From positions 13,206,001-13,270,000 of the forward strand of contig NC_043004.1 in the NCBI RefSeq assembly GCF_006345805.1: a stretch of DNA of 64,000 nucleotides, written 5' to 3'. The translations under genes were made by a program, and so were the position numbers. The stretch comes from Octopus sinensis (Eukaryota). The notes below the pieces were generated by a model. That model searched no databases. It was not told where the DNA came from and saw only the letters and a list, made by a program, of their open reading frames with translations. The first letter of the stretch is position 1. Each line of letters opens with the position of its first letter. This document shows, piece by piece, positions 4,228-35,664 of the stretch.

Positions 4228-4426
4228 AATTAAGGGGTTGACGAAAAGGATTACGAACCCCAATAGCTGTCTCTGGTAGCCCAAAATAATTTTCGTCGAA
4301 TGGGACAAGCCTCCGTCTTCAGGGAAGAGATCCGCCATGTAATCAATCAACGAACATAATTTTGGATCACCGGTCCCCAGAAACAGCTGTCGGATTTCTA
4401 ATACTTTTCTTCAACCCCTTTTAATT
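4228..4426. mobile_element. Foldback element with split hammerhead-like motif (PLE pLTR-like)
   Basis: Terminal IR aaggggttga (4232-4241) / tcaacccctt (4411-4420) plus internal IRs. CTGAAGA on minus at 4322-4316; GAAACAGCTGTC on plus at 4380-4391. Confidence 0.6.
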
Positions 4427-4641
4427 TTTGATTTCATTCTTATTCTCTACGTTAGACCATTTTGTATGCAGATATACATATTTTATATTTCACGTATTTA
4501 ATATACTTTGCAACACACTTATTCTTACATTTACAGCTCTACCCACTAAGTTTAAACATCTAGACCATTGCTAAGTGGATCCTGTACAGGGAATATATGA
4601 TTCTATGATTCTCATCCATAAATTATATATATATATTTATA

Positions 4642-4702
<61 letters not shown>

Positions 4703-4708
<6 letters not shown>

Positions 4709-5037
4709 GCGCTGGTTGCCAACATAATTATGTTGGACAAACGAGGCTCCCGTTACGTAAACGAGTAGCGGTGCATAAAGAACAAATAAATCTCCCGGAA
4801 TACCGACAAATTCCACTGAGTGACCACATAGACTCATGCGCTAAAGATATAAATCCCAAATTCTACATATTCCCCTTCTACAATGTAAAGACGGGATCAC
4901 CACACAGGAGAGAATTAACAAGGAGAATCTCTTTATTGAAAAATTCAAAACGCAACTTAATATGCAAACTCCCCATTGATCATACTCCCTTTTTCTCTAC
5001 TCTCATTCTTCATGGATGGACTAACACAAATATATAA
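4703..5037 (+). mobile_element. Penelope-like element GIY-YIG endonuclease fragment, 5'-truncated in (TA)n
   Basis: TCAGCQHNYVGQTRLPLRKRVAVHKEQI...PLSDH matches the PLE motif CxxC...Y(I/V)GQT...L..R...H. AT-rich putative 3' region continues to about 5845. Confidence 0.8.
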
Positions 5038-5932
5038 GGATACCATGCATTCATCACTTCAAGCTAAAACTTATATTCTTTAAATATCATTATTATTATT
5101 GTTGTTATTATTACTATTATTTTTATTATATATGACATAACATCTGAAATGTAATTATAAATTGGTTTATGCAAATTTGTATAATTAGAAATATATAAAT
5201 AAAGTGTTAAAATCTGAATTTAAGTTAACAAACAATTATATAAAAAAGATAATGCAAATGAAGCTAAAATGATGATTTTATAATTTAAGGTTTATTAACC
5301 CCTTTATCACAAAAAATTGATAAACACAAATTGAAGAGCTCAAAACCCATAGAGTTGTCACCCCTTATTCGCAACACAGGAACTGAAGAACTACAATTAC
5401 TACTACTTCCTGTTTTGCCAACATCCTTATTAAACTAAACACACATGGCTTTAATCCCATGGATCCTAATATTCAAGGTAATTTTTTCGTGAACAATCAT
5501 TAAACTCAAGATACACAAAGACTCACAATGTATCGGAATACTATTTTTTTATTTTTGTACATATTTATCATTATTTTTTTGCAAAAAACAATGCAATTTT
5601 CTTTTTTCCCCTTTCTCACTTTAAAAAAAAATTTTTACTTTACAATTGTTGAAAAGTCACATTATGACGAAAACCGGTTTGAATTAATATATATTTATAT
5701 ATTTTATCAATTTTTCAAGAACTTTTTCCATACACCCATTTACATTAAAATTTCTTTCAATTTAGCATTATGCATTTTTACAATTTTTCCTTGCTTATCA
5801 TTTCTCCACGTGCGGTCAACACAACCCAACCATTTATTGATCTAATATATACATATATATATATATATATATATTAATATATATATATTATATATATATA
5901 TATCAGACCTCGTATACTATTATATATATAAT

Positions 5933-6003
<71 letters not shown>

Positions 6004-6010
6004 TATATAC

Positions 6011-6059
<49 letters not shown>

Positions 6060-6100
6060 TATATATATAATATAATATATATATATACACATATATATGT

Positions 6101-6273
6101 ATACGAGGTCTGATCAATAAGTATCCGAAAGTAAAGCACTCTGAGCTGAACCGCTTGGAACAGAGTGACTTTGAAATCTGCTGTCCATGTGCACTAAGTT
6201 TTAGCGTTCTAGCTCCCTCCCGCTGTCTGCAGCTGTGCTTGGAAGTAACGTGTGTATCGTGTAATCGTCGCAT
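6101..6273 (+). mobile_element. mariner 5' end (TIR plus 5' UTR) remnant
   Basis: Starts tacgaggtctgatcaataagtatcc and is similar to the mariner 5' end at 34263-34070 (minus). An inverted TIR stub tcagacctcgta lies at 5902-5913. Confidence 0.7.
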
Positions 6274-6420
6274 TATATATGTTTGTGTGTGCGTGTGTGT
6301 GCATGCGTGTGTGCATGCGTGTGTGTGTGTGTGCGCGTGTAAGTAGTTTGGTTTTCAAGAGATATTAAATTTCCTTGATTGTGATGTTCAAAATGATATT
6401 CCGAAAATTTATAATGTTTG

Positions 6421-6537
6421 TCACCTGTCTTTTTAAAAATATCGTAGAATGTTCCAGTTAACCTAATTAACTTTTGTCTCAACTTTGCCGTGCCGACGAT
6501 TCCAAACGAGGATGAAATAGTACCATACACAGCAACC
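6421..6537. repeat. Local duplication copy 1 (copy 2 at 8623-8739); possible minus-strand exon
   Basis: About 117 bp shared with 8623-8739. On minus: ttttag|...ACAG|gtgaca, open frame SLVAVYGTISSSFGIVGTAKLRQKLIRLTGTFYDIFKKT. The duplication is clear; the exon reading is weak. Confidence 0.7.
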
Positions 6538-6978
6538 AACGACTAAAAATTTTAGGAACTTTATTTTACGTAAAAAACAAAATTAGAATTAAAAATTCAA
6601 GATCTTTAACTTAACTTGGTTTAACTCAGAATAAATTCTCTCCCTTTAATGTTAAATCACCACCAGAAGCAAAACATGTGTTCAAAATGTTAAATTTTTT
6701 ATGTAACTAATTTCAATAACTATATCTGTGAGGTCCTTTCATATGACTGTTGTCGTTCTACCTCATAGCCACCTATGCAACTTCATGCTCATACTCACGT
6801 GTATAAATCATGAGTCGCTATATATTCGCCAAATATTGACCGGAGAGAACATAGCTCAACGTTTCCCTGTGATGAGACACTCTATAGCTTTAATTCTCCC
6901 TTTATCGCATTAATTTCAAACTTTAGGAAATTGTGAAACTCTTTCAGCTAATCTAAATTTACCTTAGAAAGGAATTCT

Positions 6979-7388
6979 TATTTCTTTACTGTCCACAATG
7001 GGCTACACACAGTGGGGACAAACAAGGACAGACAAACGGATTAAGTCGATTATATCGACCCCAGTGAGTACTTATTTAATCGATCCCGAAAGGATGAAAG
7101 GCAAAGTCGACCTCGGCGGAATTTGAACTCAGAACGTAACGCCAGACGAAATACCTATTTCTTTACTACCCACAAGGGGCTAAACACAGAGTGGACAAAC
7201 AAGGACTGACGAACGGATTAAGTCGATTATATCGACCCCAGTGCGTAACTGGTACTTAATTTATCGATCCCGAAAGGATGAAAGGCAAAGTCGACCTCGG
7301 CGGAATTTGAACTCAGAACGTAACGACAGACGAAATACGGCTAAGCATTTCGCCCGGCGTGCTACCGTTTCTGCCAGCTCGCTGCCTT
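6979..7388 (-). mobile_element. tRNA-derived SINE family C (Meta-domain-like) with tandemly duplicated body
   Basis: Head aaggcagcgagctggcagaaacgg..., B-box gagttcaaattcc, central gaggtcgactttgcctttcatcctttcgggatcgat. Body present twice. TSD aaaggaattct at 6968-6978 and 7391-7401. Confidence 0.85.
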
Positions 7389-7490
7389 AAAAAGGAATTC
7401 TAATAATTTCATAATATAATTATTCCTTTATACCATATATAAGTATGTGTGCACATGTGCGAGTGTGTACAGAGATAGATAGACAGATAA

Positions 7491-7560
<70 letters not shown>

Positions 7561-7741
7561 TAATTGATATATAGATAGATGAAAGACAGAGAGAGAGAGG
7601 GAGGTAAATCAAGAGAAAGATAAATAGACAGAGAGAGTGTGAGAGAAAATGTGTGTGTGAGAGAGGTTAATCAGGGGAAAGAAAGAAAGAAAGAAGATAT
7701 ATATATATATATCTATATATATATATATTATATATATATAT

Positions 7742-7773
<32 letters not shown>

Positions 7774-8622
7774 ATAGATAGATGTGTGAGTGCCTGTGTG
7801 TCTGTGTGAGTGTTCAGGTCTTTTGGTGTGATTGGACATATATTATCTATCCTTGAAAATTAAATTGGCGGTGAAAAAAAGACGTCAAATATACGACATA
7901 ATAAGACTTTGAATATTTGCCATAAGGTAACTGAGAGAATATGTAAATATTTCCGTTATTATTCTGCTTGTTAGTCGCTGTTGTTCTTAAAACATATGCA
8001 AGGTTTCAGCTACACCCTATGCAGCAGCTGGAATACAAATCCATCGAGCACGTAGAATGCAACGAAGTAGACTTTCTATTAATCAGCTTTCTATCATCTG
8101 GGAAATAAGGTATCAAAACTATCTGAAAGGCAGATGACGCAGTATAATTTCGATGTCCTGCGAAGGATATGTAACGTTTCGGCACAGCCGTTCTGGTACC
8201 GCCTATTTGGCATCACTGAATCGACGCTGACTTACTTGACATCAGCCGTTTTAAAGTCTCTTTAGTTTTAATGCATCTGTCATTCACTAACTCCCGTCCT
8301 TCCATCTTTTCCACCTGTCTTTTAGCAGCTTCTCTCTTTCTTTACTCTCTCTCTCTCTCTCGCTCTCTTTCTGTTCATGCCTGTGAGTATATTTCTCTTT
8401 ATGGTTATTAGGGAAGAGAAACTGTTTCTGCCAACTGTTCTCACCTAATAATTTGCATTGCCTCTCTCACTCGCTCTCTCTCACTCTCTATCTCTCTCTC
8501 CCTTTCTCTTTCTCAGACTTTCTATATCTGTGTGTGTATATTTCTGCTCACGCGTTCGTGTGCCTGTGTTGCGTGTGTGTGCTTGTGTGTGTGTGTGTGT
8601 ATGTGTGTGTGTGCGTGTGTGT

Positions 8623-8739
8623 GACACCTGTCTTTTTAAGAAATTTCGTAGAATATTCCACTTAGCCTAATTAACATTTGTCTCGACTTTGCTGTGCTGA
8701 CAATTCCAAACGAGGATGAAATAGTACCATACACAGCAA
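8623..8739. repeat. Local duplication copy 2 (of 6421-6537)
   Basis: Same sequence with one extra base that creates TAA in the minus-strand frame. Confidence 0.7.
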
Positions 8740-9041
8740 GACCAGTCGAAGCAAATACCCTATATTTTCTTTCGAAGTATATATATGCTTCTTTCTCTCC
8801 GTTTACTTAATTCACATAAATATAAAACCATAACCCCCGACTACATCACCCGTCATTGTATACACTCAGTGACTGAATATCTCGCTTGCATAAATCAAAG
8901 TTACATTCCCTAGTTTCCTGTGCGTATATACATGTATAAACATACATACGTACATGCATACATATCTATCTAACTGTCTCTGTCTCTCTGTATCTATCTC
9001 TTTATATATATATATATATATATATTATATCTATATATATA

Positions 9042-9081
<40 letters not shown>

Positions 9082-9194
9082 CAAATACTCTAATATCTAT
9101 ACAGCCTTGGGTTTTTTATCTCATTACGCAAAAAATTCATATCTATATATATATATATATATATATATTATATTTATATATATACTATAATATA

Positions 9195-9233
<39 letters not shown>

Positions 9234-9244
9234 ATTTTATTATT

Positions 9245-9664
9245 ATAATACAGGATAGCAAAACTTTTAGAAATTTCACTACAAGTGACTTAGATGTATA
9301 AAGAATCAATTGACAACATATTTTCCTTATAAAATTTGTGTACATTTAAATACAAAACAGGCCACCCTTAACAGGCAGCATTACACGCTACAAGGAGCAG
9401 TCAAAACATCCAAAACCACATTTATAAGCAATTTCGAATGAAAAATAAAAACTCTAATTAGCAAATAAAATAATTTGCTAGGCGAAGTTCTCATCAGAGT
9501 TGGAAAACTAGGTATGGCTGTAAAAAAATACAAGGTAAAAGTTTTTATTTTCACTCCCTTCGAATTTGCTCTTAAATGTGGTTTTGGACGTTTGAGCGCT
9601 CCTTCTAGCGTGTAAGGCTGCCTGTTAAGGATCGCCTCTTTTGTGCTTAAATGTGCACTAATTA
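9245..9664 (-). mobile_element. Hairpin-plus-tail element flanked by (TA)n, with hammerhead core
   Basis: IR arms about 9332-9452 and 9540-9664. Minus strand CTGATGA-GAA (9497-9488)...TTC-GAAA (9438-9432), with an internal TAGCAAAT/ATTTGCTA hairpin in stem II. Confidence 0.7.
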
Positions 9665-9671
9665 TATATTC

Positions 9672-9864
9672 ATAGTTCGCTAGCCACTACACATTTTCTC
9701 TCCTTGTTTTCTCTCCTTGTTTCTTTGCTTTCCTTTCTGTGGAAGTGCGTAGGCTCGAAATGTTAAAGACTTTTTCACTTCCCGAGTGTTAAACTAATAC
9801 ATCTGTTTGTTGTCTACACTACCTGTCTTCATCTTTTGTTTGTTTTTATTTGTGAATTCTCCCT
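9672..9864 (+). mobile_element. Solo PLE pLTR with minimal HHR variant
   Basis: CTTT-CTGTGGA-A-GTGC-GTAG-GCTC-GAAAT-GTT-AAAG at 9733-9768. Homologous to 23750-23960, 43425-43620 and 20190-20352. Ends in (TA)n. Confidence 0.75.
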
Positions 9865-10009
9865 ATATATATATATATAGATATATATATATATATATAT
9901 ATATAATGAAATCGAACATTAAAAAATAATAATATTAAAACAACAAGACGGCGTGCATATGGAATGTATTAGCATGTTGCTCAGTAAAGGTGGAAAAAGA
10001 ATGTGTTTT

Positions 10010-10037
10010 AAACGTTTCGAGAATAACCCTTCGTCAG
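10010..10037 (-). ncRNA. Minimal hammerhead core in a PLE pLTR-like segment (about 9905-10150)
   Basis: Minus strand CTGACGA-A-GGG-TTATT-CTC-GAAAC-GTTT: canonical CUGANGA and GAAA with a 3-bp stem II. Stem I pairing is poor. Confidence 0.55.
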
Positions 10038-10378
10038 ATAGAGGAGAAACAAAAAGTCCAGAGAAGAAAGAATTTCCACGAATAGCACGTTTGGTTACAT
10101 GGCTAAAAGTCACCGGAAGTGGAAAGAAATAGAGGGGACAGGAAAGTGCGAAGAATGACAGTGTGTGTCTGTGTGTGTGTTTGTGTGTGTATGCATGTGT
10201 GGTAGCATGTTTGTGTTTATGTGAGTGATGAGACAAGGTGAAGTGTGTGTGAGTGCAGGAACGTTGCTGTGCGTAGGTTTGTTTTTGAGCGAGCGGGGCG
10301 TGTGTATACGTGTATATGCGTACAAGTGTGTGCGTGTGAGGAACTCTTCAACGCCTCCTTACATATATATAAATAAAT

Positions 10379-10790
10379 CGGAGTGGCTGTTTGGTAAGTA
10401 GCTTGCTTACCAACTACATGGTTCCGGGTTCAATCGCACTACGTGGCATCTTGGGCAAGTGTCTTCTACTATAGCCTCGGGCCGACCAAAGCCTTGTCAG
10501 TGGATTTCGTAGACGGAAACTGAAAGAAGCCTGTCGTATATATGTATATATATATCATAATATAAGATATGTGTGTGTGTGGCTTGCTTGTGTGTGTGTG
10601 TTTGCCCCCTAGCATTGCTTGACAATCGATGCTGGTGTGTTTATGTCGCCGTCACTTAGCGGTTCGGCAAAAGAGACCGATACAATAAGTACTGGGCTCA
10701 CAAAAGAATAAGTCCCGGGGTCGATTGCCCGACTAAAGGCGGTGCTGCAGCATGCCGCAGTCAATGACTGAAACAAGTAAAAGAGAAAGA
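10379..10790 (+). mobile_element. tRNA-derived SINE family A (internal microsatellite)
   Basis: Head ggagtggctgtttggtaagtagcttgc...gggttcaatcgc, body cttgggcaagtgtcttctactatagcctcgggccgacc, tail gactgaaacaagtaaaagag. Many copies in the window. Confidence 0.9.
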
Positions 10791-10794
10791 GAAA

Positions 10795-10845
<51 letters not shown>

Positions 10846-11556
10846 GCATTATATATATATTATATATATACATATATACTCACATATACACTTACATAAA
10901 CATGCTCACGAATATACATGTGCAAGTAATATCACTATATATAGATATACATTTGTGTATATTTACACACATACACACACACACACACACACATACACAC
11001 ACACAGAGTCACACACACATACACATATGCAGAACCACGCGTGTGAACGTCTATAAAGGTGTCTGTAAATATTGTCACTGTTTTTCTCTCTATACATTGC
11101 CGTTAACGCTTTATATTATTTAATTTCACTTTTGCACCAAAGTCAATACTAACGCGAAAGCCGTTTAGAGATGTTTTCTGTTATACCATAATATCCATTG
11201 GCTAGATAAAGATGGCTGATTGCGAATCCGAAACCGGAGGCATATTGATTAACTGCTTATATACCGAAATCCACCTAAAACATACTTACTGGCAAACTGA
11301 GATGAAAATGGCAGACAGACATATACGGATGTATAAATACGGAGAGCAACAACCACAGATAAATGAAAGATACCGACACTTGGAGAAATAAAAAGATATA
11401 TAACGAGCGAAACATAGAAAATTGGAGTAGGAAAGCGGTAATACTATATACAGGATGAAATGCTGAGACATTTAACTAAAAATATCGACTAATGATAGAT
11501 AGGTTTAAATAGATAAAGAGATGATCGCACACGCACCACATGAATGCACACATACA

Positions 11557-11588
<32 letters not shown>

Positions 11589-11689
11589 GACATATGAAAT
11601 GACTACAAAAATGATAAAGTATCGTATTTGTTACTATATATGCGTATATACATACATATTACTTTCACTCTCTCTCTCTGTCTTTCAAT

Positions 11690-11744
<55 letters not shown>

Positions 11745-12141
11745 TATAATATATATACGTGTGGTGCATATATATATATATACATACACAGTCATGCACA
11801 TATACATTTATACATATATACATAATACATATATATACGTGTGTGTTTGTGTGTGTGTGTGGATGCATGTGGTTTTGTGTGTGCGTATGTGTAGGTTTGC
11901 GTATGTCAATTGAACAAAATTTCAATAAAATTGCAGCACCACAGAAATAAAATGGGTAGACAAGTAGACTTTGAAGCAGACTTGAATTTTTTATACATTT
12001 ATTGAAGTGGTTTTTGTGTCTCGACCCCTCTCTTTGATATATTTACGTCACATTTTTATTAGTTTTGAAGACTTCAGCACAATAATAATAATCATCAAAA
12101 ACTTGACAAATATACAGTATTAATTATATCAACCATTATAC

Positions 12142-12317
12142 GTGTTTATCATCTGAAGAAAGCCTATTATCTTTAAGAAATTTTCTTATGCTATATTGGA
12201 ATATTTTTCTTATAAAGGTTAAATTCTTAACGTATGTCTCAATCTTCATCAAGGTACCCTTATAATAAAATGAGAAGATCAAAAGAATTACACTAAACAA
12301 TGAACAAATAACCACGT
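12142..12317 (-). other. Candidate exon encoding a hydrophobic (TM-like) segment
   Basis: Strong acceptor ttttatctctgcag|, open frame VVICSLFSVILLIFSFYYKGTLMKIETYVKNLTFIRKIFQYSIRKFLKDNRLSSDDKH, weak donor gtataa. Confidence 0.25.
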
Positions 12318-12472
12318 CTGCAGAGATAAAATTCAAAAACTTGAAAAGGAAATGCAAAACTGCACAAAGAAACAAATGGAAAATAATGGTTTCTTATATT
12401 GGTTGAAAGCCAGAAGTGTATAGGAAAGCGTTATATTTCATTGAAGCAACTTCGATATATGCCTGATATATA

Positions 12473-13397: not shown

Positions 13398-13412
13398 TAT
13401 TTATTTCTGTTG

Positions 13413-16604: not shown

Positions 16605-16909
16605 ATATAGGGTGAAATTAATTAATTTGGAATAATCATTAATTACACCAAGTAGATTTCGGCATGTAAAAGCCTCATTCGAGGAAAGTTTAAGTAATAC
16701 TAAGTAATTAAGGGTTTAGCAACGAATTGCCTCACCACACACCGAATTTAGAAATAGCAGTGAAAGAGTTATAGCTATTCTTTCTACTAAAAGGGAGATC
16801 TCAGCAAAAACACAGCATTTGTAGAAAGAATAGCTATAACTCTTTGACTGCTATTTCTAAATTCGGTGTGTGGTGAGGCAATTCGTTGCTAAACCTTATT
16901 ACTTAGTAT
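16605..16909 (-). mobile_element. Hairpin-plus-tail element between (TA)n arrays
   Basis: Near-perfect IR arms 16697-16787 and 16821-16909. The tail has a partial HHR on minus: GAATGA-GGC-ttttacat-GCC-GAAA (16680-16657). Confidence 0.75.
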
Positions 16910-20189: not shown

Positions 20190-20352
20190 GAAGAGATTCA
20201 CAAAAAAACAGAAGACGAAACAGGTGGTGTAGACAAAAAACAGATGTATTAGTATAAGGCTCGGGATGTGAAAAAGTCTACGCTCTTCCACAAGAAAGGA
20301 ACATAGAACGAAACAAGGAGAGAAAATAAAGAATGTGTAGTGGCTAGCGATC
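20190..20352 (-). mobile_element. PLE pLTR copy with HHR partly deleted
   Basis: Homologous to 43425-43620 but lacks the segment holding GAAAC and the 3' strand of stem II. Confidence 0.7.
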
Positions 20353-20519
20353 TATATATGCTTTTGGTGCGAATGGTTTTGTTATACGGTTTATGTATAT
20401 GGTTTTGTAAACGATAATAATGGTATTTATTTAAGTCTAAAATGATCACACTACCATGACTAAGGAAAACAGTCTGATAATGGGGAATATAAGCCCTCTA
20501 CAGAAAGAAGTATGCTTTC

Positions 20520-20590: not shown

Positions 20591-20815
20591 TTAGCCTCTC
20601 TGTTTCTGTCAAATTTAAGAACTATATTAGTTCCTAGTTGTTTTTGTTAACAAACTTTCTATATGCTTTCGGTGCGAATGGTTTTGTTATACGGCGCCGG
20701 GTTTTTACAATCCTTTATTTCTCTATACCATTTCTAAGATATGTAAGTTGGACCTTTTCATATATATACATATATACATTTTTTCTATCTCATGTATTTA
20801 ATTTCATGTATTTGT

Positions 20816-23434: not shown

Positions 23435-23534
23435 NNNNNNNNNNNNNNNNNNNNNNNNNNNNNNNNNNNNNNNNNNNNNNNNNNNNNNNNNNNNNNNNNN
23501 NNNNNNNNNNNNNNNNNNNNNNNNNNNNNNNNNN
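23435..23534. other. Assembly gap (100 N)
   Basis: Run of N. Confidence 1.
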
Positions 23535-23749: not shown

Positions 23750-24891
23750 ACGGGAAGGTTTACGAAAATATACAAAAGACGAAGGCAGGTGGAGTAACAA
23801 CGAACAATTGATTAGTATGGCGCTCAGGAATAGAAATAAAACAAGTCTTTTACGTTTCGAGCCTACGCTCTTCGACAGAAAGATACACAGAAAAGAAACA
23901 AGGAGAGAAACAAGGAGAGAAAAAAATGCGTGTAGGAGCTAACGGTCCATCATGGCGTTCTGATTTCAGGCAGAAGTCAGAGGTCAGAGGTCAGACGTTA
24001 GATGCTAGAGGGATAGTAGGGGAGATAACAGGGTCAAGTGATTTCACCCCAACATGAAGGTGCGTGTGTATATAAGAGAGTATGTATGTGCGTGTGAAAG
24101 AGGGCTGGTGGTCTGGACTTGTGTATGTATGTGTGGGTGTGGAGATATGAGGATGGGTGTGTGGTTGGTGTGTTGTGATGTGATGTGTAATGTGGGCGGT
24201 GTTGCTGTGGGTGGTGTGTTGTGATGTGATGTAATGTCGTATGGTGTAGTGTAGTGTGATTGTGTGGAGGTGGGAAAACTCATGTGGGGTGTGGGTTGGG
24301 GTAAAGTGGGGGTCGTGGGGAGAGTGAGAGGGGAGAGAGAAAGAGATGAGGGGGAGAGGGGGAGAGGAGAGAGGAGATGAGGGGGAGAGGACAAGGAGAG
24401 TAGAGGAAGGAGGGGAGATGAGGAGGGGGGGGTAGGGGGAGGGGGGAGGAGAGAGAAGGGGAGGGAGGGAGCAGAGAGAAAGAGAGAAGGGGAAGAGGGA
24501 AGAAGAAAAAAGAAAGAAGAGGGAAGAAGGGAAAGAAGGGAAGATGAAGGAAAGAGAGTAGGGTGAAAAGATGAAGGACTAAATAGAAGTAGGAGTCGGG
24601 GGGAGGTTAGATGAAAAAAAGGGGGAATACATGAAATGGGGGCGGAGAGTTGAGACCAAATGGCCTAAAAGAGCGAAGAGAGAAGATTAATCCGTGTTCA
24701 CGGCGCAAGGGGTAATCCGGATGGCCTCTGTCCAAGGACAATCCGAAGAAAAACAGGTGTTGCAAGGAGTGACCGGTGGAGGGGAAATGGCGTGAAAACG
24801 GTGTGTCATTGGCAAGGCGAAAGTCTCGGAGGTGTTCCGCGAACCGGTCAGCCAAGCGGCGTCCCGTTTGTCCGATGTATAGGGAATGGCA
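23750..24891 (-). mobile_element. Penelope-like element 3' part: GIY-YIG C-terminus, low-complexity 3' UTR and pLTR
   Basis: CHSLYIGQTGRRLADRFAEHLRD...PFSRHF...HS...REHGLIFSL...P.GLN (24891-24607) is a typical PLE endonuclease end. It is followed by a pyrimidine/CA-rich tract and a pLTR ending at (TA)n. Confidence 0.9.
23847..23882 (-). ncRNA. Minimal type I hammerhead motif with variant core (A6 to U)
   Basis: CTTT-CTGTCGA-A-GAGC-GTAG-GCTC-GAAAC-GTA-AAAG: stem I CTTT/AAAG, stem II GAGC/GCTC, palindromic AC/GT stem III, GUA site. Confidence 0.65.
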
Positions 24892-25250
24892 CCTTGGGCA
24901 AGTGTCTTCTACTATAGCCTCGGGCCGACCAAAGCCTTGTCAGTGGATTTGGTAGACGGAAACTGAAAGAAGCCTGTGGTATATATGTATATATATATAT
25001 ATATAATATGTGTGTGTGTTTGTGTGTGTGTGTGTTGCGTGTATGTTTTGTGTGTCTTTGTTTGTCCCTCTAGCATTGCTTGACAACCGATGGTGTGTGT
25101 TTATGTCGCCGTACTTAGCGGTTCGGCAAAAGAGACCGATAGAAAAGTACTGGGCTTACAAAGAATAAGTCCCGGTGTTGAGTTGCTCGACTAAAGGCGG
25201 TGCTCCAGCATGGCTGCAGTCAACTGACTGAAACATGTAAACGAAAAGAA
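24887..25250 (+). mobile_element. SINE family A, 5'-truncated, abutting the PLE ORF
   Basis: Starts tggcaccttgggcaagtgtc and shares tggca with the PLE at the junction. Confidence 0.85.
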
Positions 25251-25257: not shown

Positions 25258-25314
<57 letters not shown>

Positions 25315-25529
25315 ATATATATACATGTATGTATATATGTATATATATACATGTACATATATATCTATGTATATATGTATATATATATATATACGTATAT
25401 ACATATATATATGTATATATATATTATAGTATATATATATATGTATATATATATCAATATATATGTGTATATATATATATACATTAAATTTTAAATATAA
25501 TAAATAGATAAAAAATAAAATATCCCAAA

Positions 25530-26000: not shown

Positions 26001-26024
26001 TTCAAATTTTAAAAGGTTTTGCCG

Positions 26025-26570
26025 CCAATTTCCAGCAATCTTCGGCTATCTCCGGCAATCTCTTGCAATCTCCCGTAATCTCCGGCAATCTCCGGCAAAC
26101 TCCTGCAATCTCCGGCAATCTCCGGCAAACTCCGGCAATCTACGGCAAACTCGGGCAATCTCCGGCAAACTCTACCAATCTCACTCTATCTCCGCCTCTC
26201 TCACTCTATCTCTGCTTATCTCGCCTATCTCACTCTATCTACGCCTATCTCACTCTATCTATGCCTAGCTCTGCCTATCTCACTCTATTTACACCTATCT
26301 CTCTCTATCTCACTCTGTTCCAGGTGTTTTAACACACAGCATTATTGGGAAATCTCCCAAAATGCTACTCCGCCAATCTCCGGCTATCTCCCGCTATCTC
26401 CCGCTATCTCCGGCTATCTCCGGCAATCTTCGGTAAACTCCGGCAATCTCCTGCAATCTCCGGCAAACTCCGGTAATCTCCGGCAATCTCCAGCAAACTT
26501 CGGCAATCTCCGGAAAACTCTGGCAATCTCCGGATGTCTCCGGCAATCTCCGGCAAACTCCGGCAATTAT
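26025..26570. repeat. 10-bp minisatellite (TCCGGCAATC) with an internal block of CTCACTCTAT/CGCCTATCT variants
   Basis: Arrays at about 26025-26180 and 26365-26570. Variant block 26180-26315. Hairpin agcattattggga/tcccaaaatgct at 26338-26366. Confidence 0.9.
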
Positions 26571-27327
26571 CAAAAAAAATTTTTGAAAATTTTTCTGAAA
26601 ATTTCATCAAAACTTTGGAAAAGATCTTTGAAAGATTTTTTTTAAAGGATTAAACATAATTTCACTTTGTCCGTTTATCGATCAACAGAAATATCAACAT
26701 TCTGTACTTTAGAGTAGGTGACGGAGATTTCTTCAGACATTTGTATACTTGAATGAAAATTTATAAGTGATGTATGATTATGACGGACATAGGTAGATTT
26801 TCGAGTCACGTGTTCTATCCATCGGACAGGCACCCGTATCTACCCAACATACTTCAGGGAAGTATGCGACAAACCGATTTTCTTGTTTAAACTCTTAGAA
26901 AGAGTTGTTCTACTTACTGCGCTGTGGGATTGAAAGTTGGACTTCATGAATACGAAGCGAAGTTTTAAACTAATCAGCTAATCCTGCGCATTTCTGAATT
27001 TATATATTCAAACACACATAAATACCCAAGCACACACACACAAATGCATGCACAGGTGCACTGCTGGCACGTGCGGGTGCGCGCATACACACGGTCACAC
27101 ATACAGACTCACACACAAACTTAGATATATGTTTATAGATTCTATATTTACATGCATATACGCACATATAATCATGGCTGTGTGTTAAGACGGTTGCCTC
27201 TCAACCACATTGTACCACGTTCAGTTCATTTTGTATGACACCTTGTAAGTATGGACCTATCAGTCTTGTGAGTGAATTTAGTTAATGGAAAATTAAGGCA
27301 GCATGTATACATTTATATATATATATA

Positions 27328-27710
27328 CAGGCGCAGGAGTGGCTGTGTGGTAAGTAGCTTGCTAACCAACCACATGGTTCCGGGTTCAGTCCCACTGCGT
27401 GGTATCTTGGGCAAGTGTCTTGTGACCAATGCCTTGTGAGTGGATTTGGTAGACGGAAACTGAAAGAAGCCTGTCGTATATATGTATATATATGTGTGTG
27501 TGTGTTTGTGTGTCTGTGTTTGTCCGCCTAGCATTGCTTGACAACCGATGCTGGTGTGTTTACGTCCCCGTTACTTAGCGGATCGGCAAAAGTGACCGAT
27601 AGAATAAGTACTAGGCTTACAAAGAATAAGTCCCGAGGTCGATTTGCTCGACTAAAAGGCGGTGCTCCAGCATGGCCCCAGTCAAAATGACTGAAACAAG
27701 TAAAAGAGTA
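27328..27710 (+). mobile_element. SINE family A, near full length
   Basis: ggcgcaggagtggctgtgtggtaagtagc...gactgaaacaagtaaaagag. An older copy precedes it at about 27170-27305. Confidence 0.9.
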
Positions 27711-27738
27711 AAATAGTATATATATATACATTCATATA

Positions 27739-27783
<45 letters not shown>

Positions 27784-27784
27784 G

Positions 27785-27816
<32 letters not shown>

Positions 27817-27876
27817 TGTATGTATGTATGTATGTATGTATGTATGTATGTATGTGTGTGTGTATGTATGTATGTA

Positions 27877-27918
<42 letters not shown>

Positions 27919-27949
27919 GAGAGAGAGAGAGACATAGATAGATAGATAG

Positions 27950-28268
27950 ATTCAGAAGAATTAGGTACTTAAGTTGAGGCACCGAATTTAGTACGGCATT
28001 ATTCATACACTTTCAAAGGTGGTTAAATTGAAATAAGCAATAGGATATCCAGAGGTAATGCACTACGATCGTTTCAATCGGCTCAATTTAATTGAACAGT
28101 ACAACCTTACCTTCTCGGTGGTTTTAGGAAACATTATACATCTGTTTTAATTTAATTCTATGTATTTACGCAGCTGAGGATTGCTCTACATTTAAATTGA
28201 TGTAATGGTTGCATTGTTCAATTCAAAGGTACTGCATTACCTCTGGATATCCTGTTGCTTATTTTGAT

Positions 28269-28272
<4 letters not shown>
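27950..28272 (-). mobile_element. Hairpin-plus-tail element with split HHR
   Basis: IR aaataagcaataggatatccagaggtaatgca / tgcattacctctggatatcctgttgcttattt. GAAAC-GATC-GTA on minus in the left arm; CTGAGGA on plus at about 28174. Flanked by (GATA)n and (TA)n. Confidence 0.7.
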
Positions 28273-28310
<38 letters not shown>

Positions 28311-28312
<2 letters not shown>

Positions 28313-29977
28313 CAAGTAGAGTTAGCGGTTATATTAACCGTCTAAGGGATAATAGTATCCATTCTTACTAACGGTATCAATTACCTATGCTATCACTGGG
28401 CAGTAGTATGCAGGCACACTATGCTCATAGAGCATAGGAAACAACAGAATAATCAAAAGTTTATCAGGAATCAAATTTAAATATTCAGAAAATGGAGATA
28501 ACTTTTATCAACAAACATCAAATTGACCAACATCGTTTGATTATTAATTAATACAAGACAGGACATAACATTTCTTACGGCCATTTCCGCTTTCAATTTT
28601 CGTCTGCCGTTATGTTCTGAGTTCAAATTCCGCTGAGGTCGATTTAATAAGTACCAGTTAATCACTGGGGGACGATGTAATCGACTTAATCCCCTTGTCT
28701 GTCCTTGTTTGTCCCCTCTATGTTTAGCCTCCTGTGGGTCATAAAGAAATAATTATTAGTCGGTGCTTACGAAAAAAATTTGGAAAAAATATTCGTCATC
28801 TACATAGCACATTCGATCTAGTACATGCAGCTTCGTCAGAGTGGATAGAAATTCATAAAATAAAATAAACGAAGGGAAGAGGAAAGAGCAGGGCCTCCAG
28901 ATGAGGCCAGAAGGCTCAATATCTGAAAATCATACCATCTTGCCGTTTGAGGCTTGACGTCGATAGGCAAAGGAGTGAACTAGCAGTGATCTAGGGAAAT
29001 TATTATGGATCATTTCCAAATACGGGGAACCAGGGCGTGTCAATAGTAATGGAAGGAAGCTAGTACTGAAATAAGACAGGGATTACCAATATTACTCTTT
29101 TACTCTTTTACTCTTTTACTTGTTTCAGTCATTTGACTGCGGCAATGCTGGAGCACCGCCTATGTGTAGAAAAAGTATAGAACTTATGATATCGTACGTA
29201 GGACTAAGTAATACTTATCCAAAAAAAAACCCGTAGAGTTCTTATAAGGTGTACTTAATGAAATATTCTAGAAAATACCACCTGTTTATAATGTATTTAA
29301 ACGAAGGTTAAAGTTAAAACGGTCTTAAATTTGCCCTTGGTTTAAACATAATTGACCAAGTGTAGATGGACTTTGGTGAATTCTATTACGGACAACAGGT
29401 GATAATTTCTAGAATATTTCAGTAAGTACACAATTATAAGGACTCTACGGTTTTTGCTTTTGGACAAGTATTAATTAGCGCTATTTACGTTATCATAAGT
29501 ACTATTCTTTTTCTAGACATATTGGTACTTCGCGTCTTATTCCATTCTAGCTTCATTTCATTACTATTTATTCGCCCTAGTTCCTCGTATTTAGACATAA
29601 TCCATAATAATTTCCCTAGATCACTGCTAGTTCACTCCTTTGCCTTTTGATGTCAAGCCCCAAACTGCAAGATGGTATGATTTTAATACATTGAGCCTTC
29701 TGGCCTCATCTTGAAGCCCTGCTCTTTCCTCTTCCCTCTTCTCTTCGTTTATTTTATCTTATGGATTTGTATTCACTCTGACGAAGCTCCATGTACTAGA
29801 TCGAATGTTCAATGTAGATGACGAATATTATTTTCGGAATTTCTTTTGTAAGCATCGACTAAATTAGGAAGTGGAAACGGCCATAAGAAATGTTATGTCA
29901 TGTTTTATATTAAATAGTAATCAACTAATGTTGGTCAATTTGTTAGTTTGTTGATAAAAGTTTCCTCCAGTTTCTGA
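28311..29977 (-). mobile_element. Large foldback element (arms about 580 bp) plus structured tail
   Basis: Left arm about 28484-29287, interrupted by SINE fragments at about 28590-28752 and 29093-29160, is the reverse complement of the right arm about 29394-29977. CTGACGA cores at 28839-28833 (minus) and 29778-29784 (plus). Confidence 0.85.
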
Positions 29978-29984
29978 TTATATA

Positions 29985-30222
29985 TATACTTTATTTAAAG
30001 CAGCAGAAAATTCAACAAAACCTGTTACTCTGAGTTTCACGTTGCGTTCGTCGGACAGTTTTTGTTAGAAAAAAACTGTTCGATGAACGGCAACGCCAAA
30101 CTCAGAGTAACAGGTTTTGTTGAATTTTCTGCTGCTTTAAATAAAGCATATTACTCTACCACTGGTATTTGAGTACTCTTTTTCCACCTGTTTCACATTT
30201 ATGTGTTTACTACTCCATCCGG
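29985..30222 (+). mobile_element. Hairpin-plus-tail element with two inverted HHR motifs
   Basis: IR about 29990-30066 / 30069-30148, tail to 30222, (TA)n on both sides. A related partial copy is at 60700-60775. Confidence 0.85.
30014..30066 (-). ncRNA. Type I hammerhead fold with U4-to-C core variant
   Basis: AACAAAAACTGT-CCGACGA-ACG-CAA-CGT-GAAAC-TCAGA-GTA-ACAGGTTTTGTT: 12-bp stem I with one mismatch, 3-bp stem II, short stem III, GUA site. Confidence 0.65.
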
Positions 30223-30223
30223 T

Positions 30224-30258
<35 letters not shown>

Positions 30259-30300
30259 CTATGTGTGTGTTGTGTGTTGTGTGTGTGTGTGTGTGTAATG

Positions 30301-30388
30301 ATAAACTGGAGAAAACTTTTTGATCAACAAACTAACAAATTGACCAACATTAGTTGATTATTATTTAATACAAAACATGACATAACAT
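30301..30388. repeat. Third copy of the foldback arm end (inverted relative to 29885-29977)
   Basis: aaactggagaaaactttttgatcaacaaactaacaaattgaccaacattagttgatta is near-identical to the reverse complement of 29885-29977. Confidence 0.85.
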
Positions 30389-30397
30389 ATATATATA

Positions 30398-30515
30398 TAT
30401 ATTGTATAAAGGGTCGTGGGTAAGGGCAGAACAATGTGACGTAAATGCAAGGTAAATCACGATCCTTTATACAATATGCTCTTTATAATACTTCATAGTA
30501 ATTATTCCATTATAA
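30398..30515 (+). mobile_element. Small hairpin-plus-tail element in (TA)n
   Basis: atattgtataaagggtcgtg / cacgatcctttatacaatat IR. No HHR core recognised. Confidence 0.6.
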
Positions 30516-30616
30516 CGTATGTACGAATGTATGTACGTACGTATGTATGTATGCATGTATAAATGAACATGTGTGTGTGTGAGTGTGCTTGTATCTATCT
30601 ACCAATAGATAGATAA

Positions 30617-30680
<64 letters not shown>

Positions 30681-31585
30681 GATAGATAGATAATGTGTGT
30701 GAAAATGCATATGTGTGTATATGTGTATACGTACACGCACGCACACATGAAAGAAAAAATAAAGTGGTAGTGTGTGATGTAAAAATAGAAATATTTCTGT
30801 GAGATACCATCGATCAATTTTAGATAATTTATAGGGTCTCTTCAAATATGTTGGTGTATTTCTGGAGACTCTTAACATCTTATCCTGTATCGTCTGCTCT
30901 AAATGACTGCAGCACTTTTAGCCTCGGCTGCCTTCTATGGATTGCACTATTCTTATAATATCATTGATAATACTGGGATGGCGTCTATATGTTGTCATTT
31001 ATTTATTATTTAGAAATTGTTTTGTACGTTTAAATGTCAGGAACGTCTAGGCGTCTGGAATTTTCATCAGATTCTAAAGTTATCTCCAACTTGAAAGCTC
31101 TAGCGAACCTGAATATGGGATTCGAGAAAGATTTTTTTCTTCTAATTGCAATGGTAAATTCGGAACAATTTAAATATTACGATTTGCTGTATAACACAAT
31201 GAGATACCCTAATTGTCCTTAGTAAACAGAATCTTACTCTGAGGTATTTTCTTCACAGTATTTTTGTTAAAATACAACAAGTGCCACTTCTTATAGATCC
31301 TTCAGGTTCATTTCAAAGAAATATTTTATTGCAGAATGCATTTCAATATATTATAGGTAGTTGTTGCAAGTAGGCACATATATAGAGTAGATTTAGAGGG
31401 ATCAATCACCTAGAGATGAGTATTGTATGTCCACATCTTTGTTCTGTTCTTATTCTCTCAGTAATATATATCCTTATAAGAAACTGTTTCAAACGCATGG
31501 TTTCGGTTTGTCCTACTATAGCTACGTGGCGAGCAATGCCCTGTGAGCAGATGTGGCAGATAGAAACTGGAGAAAGTCAATCGCT

Positions 31586-31617
<32 letters not shown>

Positions 31618-31692
31618 GTATGTATGTATGTATGTATGTATATAAATTAGAGAAGACCATCATATAGCAATAAAAATAAATAGTATATAATT

Positions 31693-31727
<35 letters not shown>

Positions 31728-31741
31728 GTATACTAGTATAG

Positions 31742-31783
<42 letters not shown>

Positions 31784-31789
31784 AGAAGG

Positions 31790-31840
31790 AGCTTCTACAG
31801 GACTAGAACTGTTTCATTCAAGAGAAATCTTCAGGAAGCT
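31790..31840 (-). ncRNA. Type I hammerhead ribozyme fold, canonical core (mirror copy)
   Basis: Minus strand AGCTTC-CTGAAGA-TTTC-TCTT-GAAT-GAAA-CAG-TTCTAGTC-CTGT-A-GAAGCT. Confidence 0.72.
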
Positions 31841-31884
31841 TCCTGAAGATTTCTGTGAAGAAACAGTTCTAGTCTGTAGAAGCT
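31837..31884 (+). ncRNA. Type I hammerhead ribozyme fold, canonical core
   Basis: AGCTTC-CTGAAGA-TTTC-TGT-GAA-GAAA-CAG-TTCTAGT-CTGT-A-GAAGCT. Predicted cleavage after GUA at 31878. Confidence 0.75.
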
Positions 31885-31989
31885 CCTTCATAAATAAATA
31901 ATTTACTTACTATGTATTGGTACCTTATTTACTGTGGTTAACCCCGAATCAACCCGGGACCTACATATATATATATATATATATATATA

Positions 31990-32030
<41 letters not shown>

Positions 32031-32084
32031 ATATAGTATAATATATTATATATATATATATACATACATACATATATATATATA

Positions 32085-33017
32085 TCACGCTGAGTAAAAA
32101 GTAAGTAACGTTTTGAAACGTGAAATTCATCACTGTATTTCAACAACGTGGAAATTTTATGCATGAAAGTAAGTATAATTACAATCATCACATTAATCAA
32201 CGAGTTACAAGTTTGTTTATTCCGGTGACATAGAAATATTTAGTTCTGGAGCTGATCAACTCTTTGAACGCACTTTCAGCATCGGTTTGATTTTTGAACT
32301 CCTTCTCCCGCAGGAAACTATCAAGTGTTTGAAGAAGTGGTAGTCGGTAGGAGAAAGATCTGGGGAATAAGCTGAATAAGGAAGAACTCCAGTGCCAACT
32401 TCTCTCAAATTCCGGAGCGTCATTAGTGAAACGGTTGGTCGAGCAATGTCATGAAGAATGATTGGCCCTCTTCTGTTGACCAGTCTGAGACGCAGGAGTA
32501 GGGGTTTTTCGTTCATTTTGTCAATTTCATAGCAATGTTTCTCCAGTATTGGATTTTCCTAGTTTTAAGAAGTTATAGGGGATGAGTCCAGCAATACACC
32601 ATCAACCAGTCACTATAACCATTGTTTTGACGAGCTCGGAAGGGAAGGTTTTCTGTGCTCCATTTTGATCAAACGGCTCCGAAGAATGTTTTTATGATTG
32701 TACAGAATCCCCTTTTCCCAGTTTTCTGGCTAACATGAAGTCCTCTTGCCAGATATCGAGTGGTCTTACGTGTATCTTTCTCAATGACGGTCTTTAATTG
32801 ACCGTCATCGATGACACATGGGTGTCCGCTACGCTCACGAACTTCAAGGCTCAGGTCTCCACTGCGAAATCGTTTAAATTATTTTCCAGCTGACCACTTA
32901 GTGGTTATTTCGTCATCAAACATTTCATTGATATTGCGAGCAGTTTCAGCTGCTTTACGTCCTTTTTTGAAGTTGAATAGCAAAATTGCTCGATAAATAA
33001 GTATATGAATTGCTGCA
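32085..33017 (-). mobile_element. Degenerate mariner transposon
   Basis: N-terminal RAILLFNFKKGRKAAETARNIN...FKRFRSGD..L....RSGHP and C-terminal ILHDIARP...LPYSAYSPDLSPTDYHFFKHL, with frameshifts. Ends at a TA run at 32084. Confidence 0.9.
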
Positions 33018-34263
33018 ATAAGAAGGAAGCTAAAGCAAGCAGAGTGACGCCGCTTGGCACAGATTGACCTAGAAGTCTGTTGAGCATGGGCAGTACGTTT
33101 TAATATTCTAGCTTACAACCATTGTTTACAGCAGTGCTGCTGCTGCTTCTTCTTCTTCTTCTTCTTCTTCTTCTTCTTCTTCTTCTTCTTCTTCTTCTTC
33201 TTCTTCTTCTTCTTCTTCTTCTTCTTCTTCTTCTTCTTCTTCTTCTTCTTCTTCTTCTTCTTCTTCTTCTGACTCACACCATTAGCCACAAAGAATAATC
33301 TCTAATTCGAGCCTACTCTAAGCTACTAAGAATGCGTGTGGCAACCTGAAGATTCCACCCACCACACGCGATAGACTGGCGGTTGCACAGGCGTGAAAGC
33401 TACGTTGTTATCCTCATTCCGTAAACGGTGGCTTTTAATAGGTGGAGAGTTGAACCATCCTGGGTACAGAGGATTCGCAATCTAGACTAGGGTCTGAAAG
33501 TTTACCACGCCCTAGGGGGTTACACCATGATTCCTCTGCTTTGTGGCAGAGGTAGGAAGAAGTAGTGAGAGAAAGTTGTGGTGAAAGAGTAAAGCGGGGT
33601 TCACCCCCCAACGTCGGAGCTTCGTGGAGCTTAGGTGTTTTTGTAGGAGTGGTTCAAACATTTCAAAGTGGTTCAGACGTTTCCCCCAAAAATGTCTATA
33701 GTGAGGAACGTTCTGGGAGACCCGCAACCAGTAGAACTGAGAAAAACATCGCAGATGTGCGGGCAGCTTTGAGGTGAAATCGTTGAATCTCATCCGTGAC
33801 TTATCGGAAGATGTGCAGATTAGTAACGGTTCAATTCTGTTCATTATCACTGAAGGTTTGGGTATAAGACGTGCGTCTGCTAATTTTGTTCCAAGACTAC
33901 TTTCAACTGACCAAAAAGACAAACGAGCTTCCGTTGCACAGGATCTCCTAGATTGTGTCGAGAACAAGGGAATCTTTTTGAAAACTTTACTTAAGTCTCT
34001 GAGCCAAGCTTTTAGCAAAGCTTTTAGCAAAATCTGATGAAGATTCTCTGCGCAGCTTTCTCTGTCATTTTCAATGCGACTATCACAAGTACACACCTTT
34101 ATTCCAAGCACTGCCGTGATCAGCTAAAGTGAATTAGAATATTAAGTCTTAGTGCGCATGCACAAAACAGTTTAAGGCCAATCTGTGCCAAGCGGCTTCA
34201 CTCTGCGTGCTTTAGCTTCGTTACTCTGGCAAGAGTCCGGATACATATTGATCAGATGATGTA
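33018..34263. mobile_element. Rearranged mariner: 5' end (+), transposase HTH/linker (+), inverted second 5' end (-)
   Basis: 33020-33138 (+) and 34263-33990 (-) are homologous 5' ends; the latter includes MTEKAAQRI./IRFC*KL. 33646-33988 (+) reads EERSGRPATSRTEKNI...IRDLSEDVQISNGSI...LGIRRASANFVPRLLS. Confidence 0.8.
33146..33645 (-). mobile_element. SINE family B variant with alternative 3' module and (GAA)n tail
   Basis: Reverse complement of about 46845-47293. (CTT)n at 33146-33270. Confidence 0.85.
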
Positions 34264-34350
34264 CGTATATACATACATACATACATACATACATACATAC
34301 ATACATACATACATAACAAAAGAAGGGTTGTATTTCCACGCAGGAAAAAA

Positions 34351-34765
34351 ATATAAGCAAATTTGTTGTTGAAAATGCACCTCATTGTGAAAAACTTGTA
34401 GTTGTTTTAAAATATATTTATTGACATATATACCAAACTAGTTTCAACAATAATGTTTGTTATCAATGGTAAACATTTAGAATTATGAATTAGAAAAACA
34501 TGTTTAAATGTTACAGTGTTGACAAGTTTAAATGTTCAACATTTAAACATGTTTTTTCTAATTCATAATTCTAAATTTATCTGTTATGAACATTTAAACT
34601 TGTCAACATTGAAACTTTAAGCATGTTTTGTAATTCATAATTCTAAATATTTACCATTGATAAACAAAAAATACGTTTATAACTCGCTTGGTATATATGT
34701 AAATAAATTTATTTTAAAACAATTACAAGTTTTTCAAATTTTGGTGCATTTTCAACAAAAATTTG

Positions 34766-34772
<7 letters not shown>
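34351..34772. mobile_element. AT-rich foldback with nested internal inversion
   Basis: Arms about 34351-34540 and 34587-34772, plus a third inverted piece at about 34537-34578. Flanked by (CATA)n and (TA)n. No HHR core seen. Confidence 0.8.
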
Positions 34773-34807
<35 letters not shown>

Positions 34808-34808
34808 T

Positions 34809-34849
<41 letters not shown>

Positions 34850-35029
34850 TATATATATATATATAGATAGATAGATAGATAGATAGAGATAGAAGATAGA
34901 TAGATAGATTGATAAAATCAAGTAAAGGTAATGAACCTCATTAAGGGATCATAAATCCAATGTAAATACTAGACAGTTACCAATCTATAGAAAGTTCAAC
35001 TATAAGGTAACCATATACACCGTGGTTCA

Positions 35030-35415
35030 TCTCTCTCTATATAAACGCAGTTTGTCTGTGCGTGTTTCTGTGTGTCTGTTTTCTCGTACCCTCACCCTGA
35101 CCACGGCTTTCAACCGATTCTGATGAAACTTGACACACACATAGCCCAATGTCATAATTCAAAACTAACGCAGCGAAAATTTTGAAAAGTTCCCCCAGTT
35201 CTGAAAAAAATCGATAAATTCGACATGGGGTCGAGAATAAAAAAAAACAAACCACAGACTGTCTAGGGGACGCAACTCAACCTTTTTTTACTCTCAAAAA
35301 AAAATTTACCATCATTTTTTTTCCATTTTTTTGCTATTTTTTGGCTATAACTCTCTGAAAATGCTTTATAGTTATTTCCCTTACAAACCTGAGCAACGCC
35401 GGGCGATACTGCTAG
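35030..35415 (+). mobile_element. Non-autonomous Helitron
   Basis: A|TC 5' start, subterminal hairpin cctgagcaacgccggg, CTAG|T 3' end, no TSD. Confidence 0.85.
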
Positions 35416-35435
35416 TATATTTATATATTTAACGA

Positions 35436-35664
35436 ATAAGGAGAAAATTGAGAAGTATTTAATAAAAATATTTATTAATTATAAAATATGACATCATATC
35501 TGGCAGCTGTTTCGATTCAGAAATCTTTAGATTTGTAAAATTATAATCATTATCGCGAAGAGATTGATCTTATAAAGATTTTAAATCGAAACAGCGGTCA
35601 GAGATGTTGTCATATTTTATAATTAATAAATGATTTATTATTTACCACTCCATTTTCTCCTTAT
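35436..35664 (+). mobile_element. Foldback element with degenerate HHR
   Basis: Arms 35436-35530 / 35572-35664. Plus strand gcgaaga-GATT...AATC-GAAAC-AGCG-GTC; the mirror arm reads GAAACAGCTGCC. Confidence 0.75.

Follow-up and report, generated by a model that had tools for sequence, protein, structure and literature searches.

Foldbacks in a microsatellite-rich octopus locus as probable insertion products of Penelope-like elements

What gives rise to ten inverted repeats of similar architecture and unrelated sequence within one short stretch of an octopus genome? The stretch analysed here, referred to as the window, comprises 64,000 nucleotides of Octopus sinensis (assembly GCF_006345805.1, contig NC_043004.1, positions 13,206,001 to 13,270,000 of the forward strand), with 34% G+C and 19% microsatellite. 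Its ten foldbacks are numbered E1 to E10 by position, and all coordinates are those of the window. We posit that they are probably insertion and truncation products of Penelope-like elements (PLEs) that bear an endonuclease, each foldback consisting of two very short copies of a 3' end placed head to head in a microsatellite. Seen directly are the head-to-head symmetry, one flush and one tailed end, outward-reading hammerhead motifs in five elements, multicopy families, variable inversion joints and solo arms. A previous inspection of the letters (the sequence-only reading) had offered either extreme truncations of microsatellite-targeting PLEs from many families or a class of fixed, ribozyme-bearing mini-retroelements, and our analysis supports the former.

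The foldbacks themselves are real. Nine of the ten are found by self-BLAST after masking of microsatellites, and the short E7 is visible solely by arm-to-arm alignment. Beyond these, the local matches comprise two of 34-44 bp and a small number of inverted pairs of dispersed repeats lying far apart, and the list is near-complete for short-loop foldbacks. Over aligned columns the arms are identical to 80% in E1, 86% in E2, 97% in E3, 89% in E5, 94% in E6, 98% in E8, 88% in E9 and 87% in E10, with 57 of 62 positions shared in E4 and 25 of 29 in E7. That the palindromes are assembly or chimera artefacts is practically negligible in probability, because artefacts would give near-identical arms: the arms differ by 2-20%, the left arm of E5 alone holds two inserted other repeats (28598-28757 and 29092-29161), and the E5 centre is crossed by contigs from two other sequencing runs, which differ at 3 and 12 letters. 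In favour of an artefact it can be said that the comparison with other runs covered E4-E7 and used contigs. The differences between arms (133 in total, 42 of them C/T and 20 A/G) carry no A-to-G editing bias. When the ten elements and two PLE ends were compared pairwise, two of 66 pairs exceeded a z of 3.5, both weakly and both in the stretch from the hammerhead region outward; the elements are therefore unrelated in sequence, as had been claimed.

The shape of the foldbacks is the first clue to their origin. Ends were defined by self-alignment and called flush within 12 bp of a microsatellite. By this measure one arm end is flush in nine of ten elements (either-side background 0.116, p ~3e-8), in line with the microsatellite flanks noted earlier, and in eight of ten the opposite arm runs on for 35-162 bp before the next microsatellite. 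The one-sided tail of about 40-170 bp that had been proposed thus holds for eight elements and fails for E10 and E1. Eight asymmetric elements among nine clear cases would have a chance of ~0.02 if the two ends were independent, which is no more than a hint that they are not. Open frames through the tails reach at most 52 codons. E1 (4112-4625) has its arms at 4141-4302 and 4344-4510, E2 (9245-9668) a tail at 9245-9327 and arms at 9328-9453 and 9540-9668, and E3 (16605-16909) a tail at 16605-16696 and arms at 16697-16790 and 16818-16909. E4 (27950-28272) consists of a tail (27950-28030) and arms at 28031-28110 and 28202-28264, and E5 (28311-29987) of a tail (28311-28474) and arms at 28475-29306 and 29371-29987. 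The tail lies to the right in E6 (29984-30222; arms 29984-30063 and 30071-30151, tail 30152-30222), E7 (30398-30515; arms ~30398-30418 and ~30458-30477, tail 30478-30515) and E8 (31785-31962; arms 31785-31837 and 31840-31892, tail 31893-31962). E9 (34316-34772) has a tail at 34316-34350, arms at 34351-34547 and 34576-34772 and an inner hairpin at 34475-34576, and E10 (35436-35664) has arms at 35436-35529 and 35573-35664 and no tail. The extents given by the sequence-only reading were close to these, except that E1 is larger (its arms span 4141-4510) and that the 35-bp tail of E9 had been missed. At the E9 joint an extra short segment forms the inner hairpin and a 35-bp direct repeat, resembling a partial tandem (34475-34648). 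E4, E5, E6, a third copy of the E5 arm end (30297-30386, minus strand, from the masked self-BLAST) and E7 adjoin within 2.6 kb (27950-30515) with short (TA)n between them, which suggests repeated insertion into one microsatellite tract.

The second clue comes from the hammerhead motifs. Exact CUGANGA is present in five of ten elements, against 1.2 expected (1000 dinucleotide shuffles, none of which reached five), and of its seven copies four read outward, three lie in a loop and none reads inward. A descriptor of the complete type I hammerhead recognizes E8, E6 and E1 (each 0/150 column shuffles; no match on the inward strand). The putative ribozyme of E8 (31837-31884, plus strand) lies in the right arm alone, without core mismatch and with a 6-bp stem I that overlaps the palindromic junction; that of E6 is found in both arms (30058-30022, minus; 30076-30113, plus) and passes with one mismatch. 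In E1 the complete fold arises solely by combining both arms, with CUGAAGA at 4322 (minus), a GAAA block at 4380 (plus) and at least 49 nt between the core blocks. Dropping the demand for stem II adds E4 (CUGAGGA at 28174, plus; GAAA block at 28075, minus), where stems I and III are present and stem II is unclear, and E5 (CUGACGA at 28839, minus, and 29778, plus, 89 nt from the GAAA block), with 0/200 and 0/60 shuffles, respectively. Since the descriptor was relaxed stepwise after the sequences had been seen, we take 3/10 as the firm and 5/10 as the generous count of hammerheads, with self-cleavage as a prediction from sequence. Eight elements had been credited with hammerhead motifs before, which is correct for loose motifs only: three hold a complete type I hammerhead, and five pass when stem II is not demanded. 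The excess over shuffled controls stands. Polarity could be read in five elements, outward in each and inward in none; the claim that a hammerhead reads toward the tail follows from the geometry, with both arms reading outward.

Other searches for ribozymes returned less. The strict descriptor gave no perfect hammerhead in the window, E8 being missed since the size of loop 3 was capped. E3, E7 and E9 hold no hammerhead above chance (full and stem II-free descriptors, compared with shuffles), and E10 retains a worn GAAA block, seen by eye. E2 carries half a hammerhead: at 9436-9497 (minus) directly after its single, perfect CUGAUGA at 9497 comes a strong hairpin of 42 nt (the 55-nt stretch has a z of -4.0) and, 13 nt on, GAAA. 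The arrangement matches none of the hammerhead orders tested and is reminiscent of the "half core" cases in PMC8557442. An Rfam scan at loose thresholds gave no hammerhead family among the 150 matches listed of 425, only microsatellite-driven microRNA matches. Permuted hammerheads, in all six block orders of PMC10085705, are unsupported in the ten elements, with nothing in E1-E3, E7, E9 and E10; the single permuted top match, E4 GCS, was equalled by 2/40 shuffles. A top match of E5 to CGS (one mismatch, AT-rich, 0/40 shuffles) was not accepted, as it conflicts with the reading of E5 given above. Applied to 79 reference PLE loci, obtained with Neptune-like proteins, the type I descriptor yielded 15 sense and 2 antisense matches, with 14 loci having a sense match; it is specific and misses many. 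The core blocks lie 49-89 nt apart in E1, E4 and E5, compared with 11-18 nt in the reference loci; for PLE-X elements, File S2 of PMC8557442 lists variants with a long loop 2.

Could the hammerhead-free elements be something else? E3, E7 and E9, whose hammerhead content is not above chance and near which presumably mariner-like pieces lie, might be miniature inverted-repeat transposable elements (MITEs) or remnants of other DNA transposons at TA sites. We consider this quite improbable, as each of the three has a tail of 35-105 bp on one side and a flush arm on the other, which is not what terminal inverted repeats predict. The fixed length and the inverted repeats at both termini that mark a MITE are likewise absent from the set as a whole, with one-sided tails in eight of ten and variable joints in E6.

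The third clue, and the one that separates truncated PLEs from fixed mini-elements, is the behaviour of the E6 family. In four other sequencing runs, the summed contig depth of E6 amounts to ~1e5-1e6, compared with 7-57 for unique DNA, and in the three deeper runs E4 reaches ~1e5-1e6 like E6, and E7 ~2-3e4, compared with 25-57; summed contig depth is no copy number, and these values are read as orders of magnitude only. The proposal of multicopy families is thereby borne out for E6, E4 and E7, and solo, non-inverted arms of the E1, E5 and E6 families occur within the window, at 20708-20802 (plus; masked self-BLAST) for E1, at 30297-30386 for E5 and at 60709-60770 (minus) for E6. At least 25 inversion joints of the E6 family are found among those listed, at many different positions (two probably represent one locus). 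The 15 tabulated joints of run X3 have a depth of 42-132, near single copy, and 16 of the 25 listed joints leave neither arm with a complete hammerhead. Contigs passing the short arm end of E6 continue into (TA)n, and the solo arm has the same 3' end at (TA)n; the family thus has 5' ends that vary and a 3' end that is fixed. Two contigs extend 5' of E6, and at the end of this extension stands the complement of the loop of E6 itself, therefore E6 is a cut-out of something longer. The 5' extent of the family was traced to about 30 nt. Depth falls towards the 5' side of E6, a trend that edge effects confound and that carries no weight here.

These observations bear on the idea that hairpin and tail form a fixed mini-retroelement that undergoes transcription, self-cleavage and re-insertion as one unit. 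Three contigs do pass through the E6 loop, and at the site where cleavage is predicted (30109/30110 in E6) four of 39 joint ends fall, against an expectation of 0.95 (p 0.016). The loop, however, is family sequence from further 5', and the cleavage-site peak is unspecific: because a site 10 nt away holds five of the 39 ends, no link between joints and cleavage can be drawn. The joints vary and lie near single-copy depth, most of those listed lack a full hammerhead, solo arms occur, and the arms have diverged independently. Given the variable joints and the solo arms, the hairpin is made anew at each insertion. A fixed mini-element is thus contradicted for E6, the one family in which it was tested, and for the foldbacks in general we hold it to be very improbable.

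The predicted core of the E6 hammerhead has a further peculiarity. Core position 3 is C in 99.6% of the read-contig depth, and GAAA is restored in 99%; at position 4 no other letter reaches 20%, and C is found in both arms as well as in the diverged solo copy. From the aligned contigs, the putative core of the family reads CCGAYGA (U4C). In E6 the U4C cores lie at 30080-30086 and 30054-30048, and stem II closes on a GNRA-type four-base loop in the left arm and in one loose-end variant. U4C has been reported to be slow in vitro and yet tolerated in a viroid (PMC3088659). It occurs in none of the 26 rows listed for the Hydra clade of PLEs in File S2 of PMC8557442 and in none of the 13 sense matches of the reference loci whose stem I has 4 bp. 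Our literature search, with most subscription papers outside its scope, found no report of a U4C/CCGA core in retroelement hammerheads. The exact E6 pattern had no match in metagenome contigs; a degenerate pattern gave one match, in a viral contig, which lacked the stems and was judged to be chance.

PLEs of a fuller kind are present in the window. A 5'-truncated PLE at 23750-24903 (minus) comprises a GIY-YIG fragment (24903-24571), a pyrimidine-rich 3' region and a minimal hammerhead at 23878 with one core mismatch, and ends at (TA)n. Relatives of its GIY-YIG fragment number 677 at E up to 0.001, and the three longest relatives listed (614-924 aa) combine RVT_1 and GIY-YIG with a Neptune/Nematis-type cysteine linker. 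Shorter, non-inverted 3' ends of this Neptune-like family are found at 9672-9863 (plus; a solo end that abuts E2), 20203-20355 (minus) and 43428-43791 (minus). A separate 5'-truncated piece (4705-5845, plus) begins with a different GIY-YIG sequence (4705-5037) right after the (TA)n next to E1 and also ends at (TA)n; the 4705-5037 fragment resembles GIY-YIG clusters (score 0.93; tblastn E 4e-6), and a worn hammerhead-like motif was seen by eye near 5645-5685. Searching for longer relatives of the 4708 fragment gave no match, and Pfam on eight open reading frames (ORFs) of the window gave nothing relevant. Hammerhead-bearing PLEs ending at (TA)n therefore exist in the window and are distinct from the foldback families.

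How would a PLE produce such hairpins? In vitro, a lizard PLE cleaves both strands of AT-rich DNA and extends them, and its reverse transcription starts at two internal sites that bound the tail; the enzyme is predicted to be a dimer, and hammerhead cleavage is not needed (PMC11167929). We propose that priming occurs at both nicks in a (TA)n tract, each using one of the two start sites, and that the two cDNAs end early, after tens to hundreds of bases. Joining of the cDNA 5' ends would then leave a hairpin with one flush and one tailed arm, the arms being identical at birth and decaying thereafter. Alternatively, the joint might form by self-priming at a palindrome (PMC3846280), and the joint of E8 is such a palindrome; between double priming and self-priming we see about even odds. 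The hammerhead would be a passenger near the 3' end that survives only in arms that are long enough. Twin priming in PLEs was not reported in the literature searched, most subscription papers lying outside its scope. More tentatively, and doubtful as a whole, E6 may represent a Hydra-type retroelement of some ten thousand copies with a U4C core fixed family-wide, the rule of one short and one tailed end may record a PLE dimer whose subunits start at different sites, and each hairpin may be a frozen double-priming event.

Several points weigh against a PLE origin, or against extending it to all ten elements. A PLE protein remnant was found by tblastn in none of the foldbacks, and continuation into an ORF with reverse transcriptase and GIY-YIG was seen only for the neighbouring, non-foldback family of 23750-24903, with no foldback tied to an ORF. 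E3, E7 and E9 without a hammerhead, and E2 with half of one, are assigned by shape alone, and the shape has exceptions: E10 is symmetric and tailless, and neither side of E1 is flush. In three steps the descriptor was relaxed with the sequences in view, under the same controls from the first relaxation on, and the folding stability of the four hammerhead stretches is unremarkable (z -1.3 to +1.5). Joints were read for the E6 family only, from the best-supported matches listed. Six 14-nt motifs from six elements have no exact match in the supplement of PMC8557442, and the foldback families are therefore not matched to published consensus sequences. The agreement of E6 with Hydra-2_aMil in stem I, stem III and cleavage base (File S2 of PMC8557442) is a by-eye match of short stems. 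Finally, tails of 71-162 bp in several foldbacks contrast with the 30-40 bp of published tails.

Further features of the window lie apart from the foldbacks. Two widely spaced inverted pairs (13433-13762/15403-15744 and 32992-33110/34135-34253) are probably ends of DNA transposons. Two ORF pieces, 32256-32558 and 33741-34037, are presumably mariner-like; Pfam left them blank. Two 10-bp minisatellite blocks surround a second 10-bp repeat at 26022-26567, and a 100-base assembly gap lies at 23435-23534.

If the foldbacks are PLE insertion products, a conspicuous share of the hairpins in a microsatellite-rich animal genome would be PLE debris, which can be mistaken for MITEs or microRNA precursors. 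The formation of inverted PLE copies and the role of the hammerhead are open questions (PMC8557442, PMC11167929), on which thousands of minimal insertions with countable joints would bear: joints and ends could separate double priming from self-priming and reveal a pile-up at the cleavage site. Hairpins that are frozen double-priming events could be counted genome-wide. The U4C family, in turn, may serve as a natural test of whether a PLE hammerhead must cut fast.

Among known systems, metazoan non-LTR (LTR, long terminal repeat) retrozymes (PMC7229834; bioRxiv 10.64898/2026.07.22.740005) are likewise non-coding, PLE-related and equipped with a type I hammerhead. They are built of tandem units of ~300 bp, whereas the foldbacks are single inverted pairs with variable joints, and a tandem repeat with a hammerhead was found in none of the ten. 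The resemblance raises an alternative that is compatible with the foldbacks being PLE insertion products, namely that the source RNA of some families (E6, E4) was an ORF-less hammerhead element borrowing the PLE enzyme. The very high abundance without a link to an ORF speaks for it, and non-autonomous PLE-related elements have been reported (bioRxiv 10.64898/2026.07.22.740005; Chlamys, PMC8557442). The lack of tandem units and the match of the E6 hammerhead to ORF-bearing Hydra elements speak against it, and we regard such a source as unlikely.

The PLEs themselves offer the closer comparison, and the architecture is not new for them (PMC8557442, PMC3846280, PMC8969392; PMC4209133). In reference PLE loci from other organisms, inverted copies were observed at the contig start (L010, at 2-61 and 2414-2473, L059, L014, L016 and L018), and that of L010 begins at its hammerhead; small foldbacks occur in 7/79 loci. 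BLASTN of the elements against the 79 loci gave one 24-bp match, and stems III as long as the E6/E8 type occur in 0/15 of their sense hammerheads. The minimal type I hammerheads of PLEs are, like those seen here, dispersed and worn (PMC4209133); in that work, pairs separated by 100-700 bp on opposite strands are described, and single motifs are for the most part attributed to truncated PLEs. Within the PLEs, the Hydra clade is similar in its (TA)n targets, in a type I hammerhead near the 3' end and in a stem III of 3-4 bp, and 26 of 27 Hydra families target (TA)n (PMC8557442). The clade is marked by a reverse transcriptase with a DKT motif and an endonuclease without CCHH, whereas the foldbacks hold no coding sequence. 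By eye, E6 agrees with Hydra-2_aMil in stems I and III and in the cleavage base, its ACTC-n-GAGT stem III recurs in five of 26 Hydra-clade rows, and the ACAG/CTGT of E1 and E8 in four; the CUGA core is present in all 26 listed, in contrast to CCGA in the E6 family. To judge from these short motifs, an origin from Hydra-clade PLEs is likely for E6 and, with less confidence, for E1, E8 and E10. Penelope-13_HM carries a 5'-truncated copy in inverted orientation and a hammerhead on both strands (PMC8557442). With the published copies of endonuclease-bearing PLEs, inverted, 5'-truncated and tailed (PMC8557442, PMC3846280), the foldbacks differ in arms too short for any ORF and share the head-to-head inversion, the optional one-sided tail, the microsatellite targets and, in E8, the palindrome at the joint.

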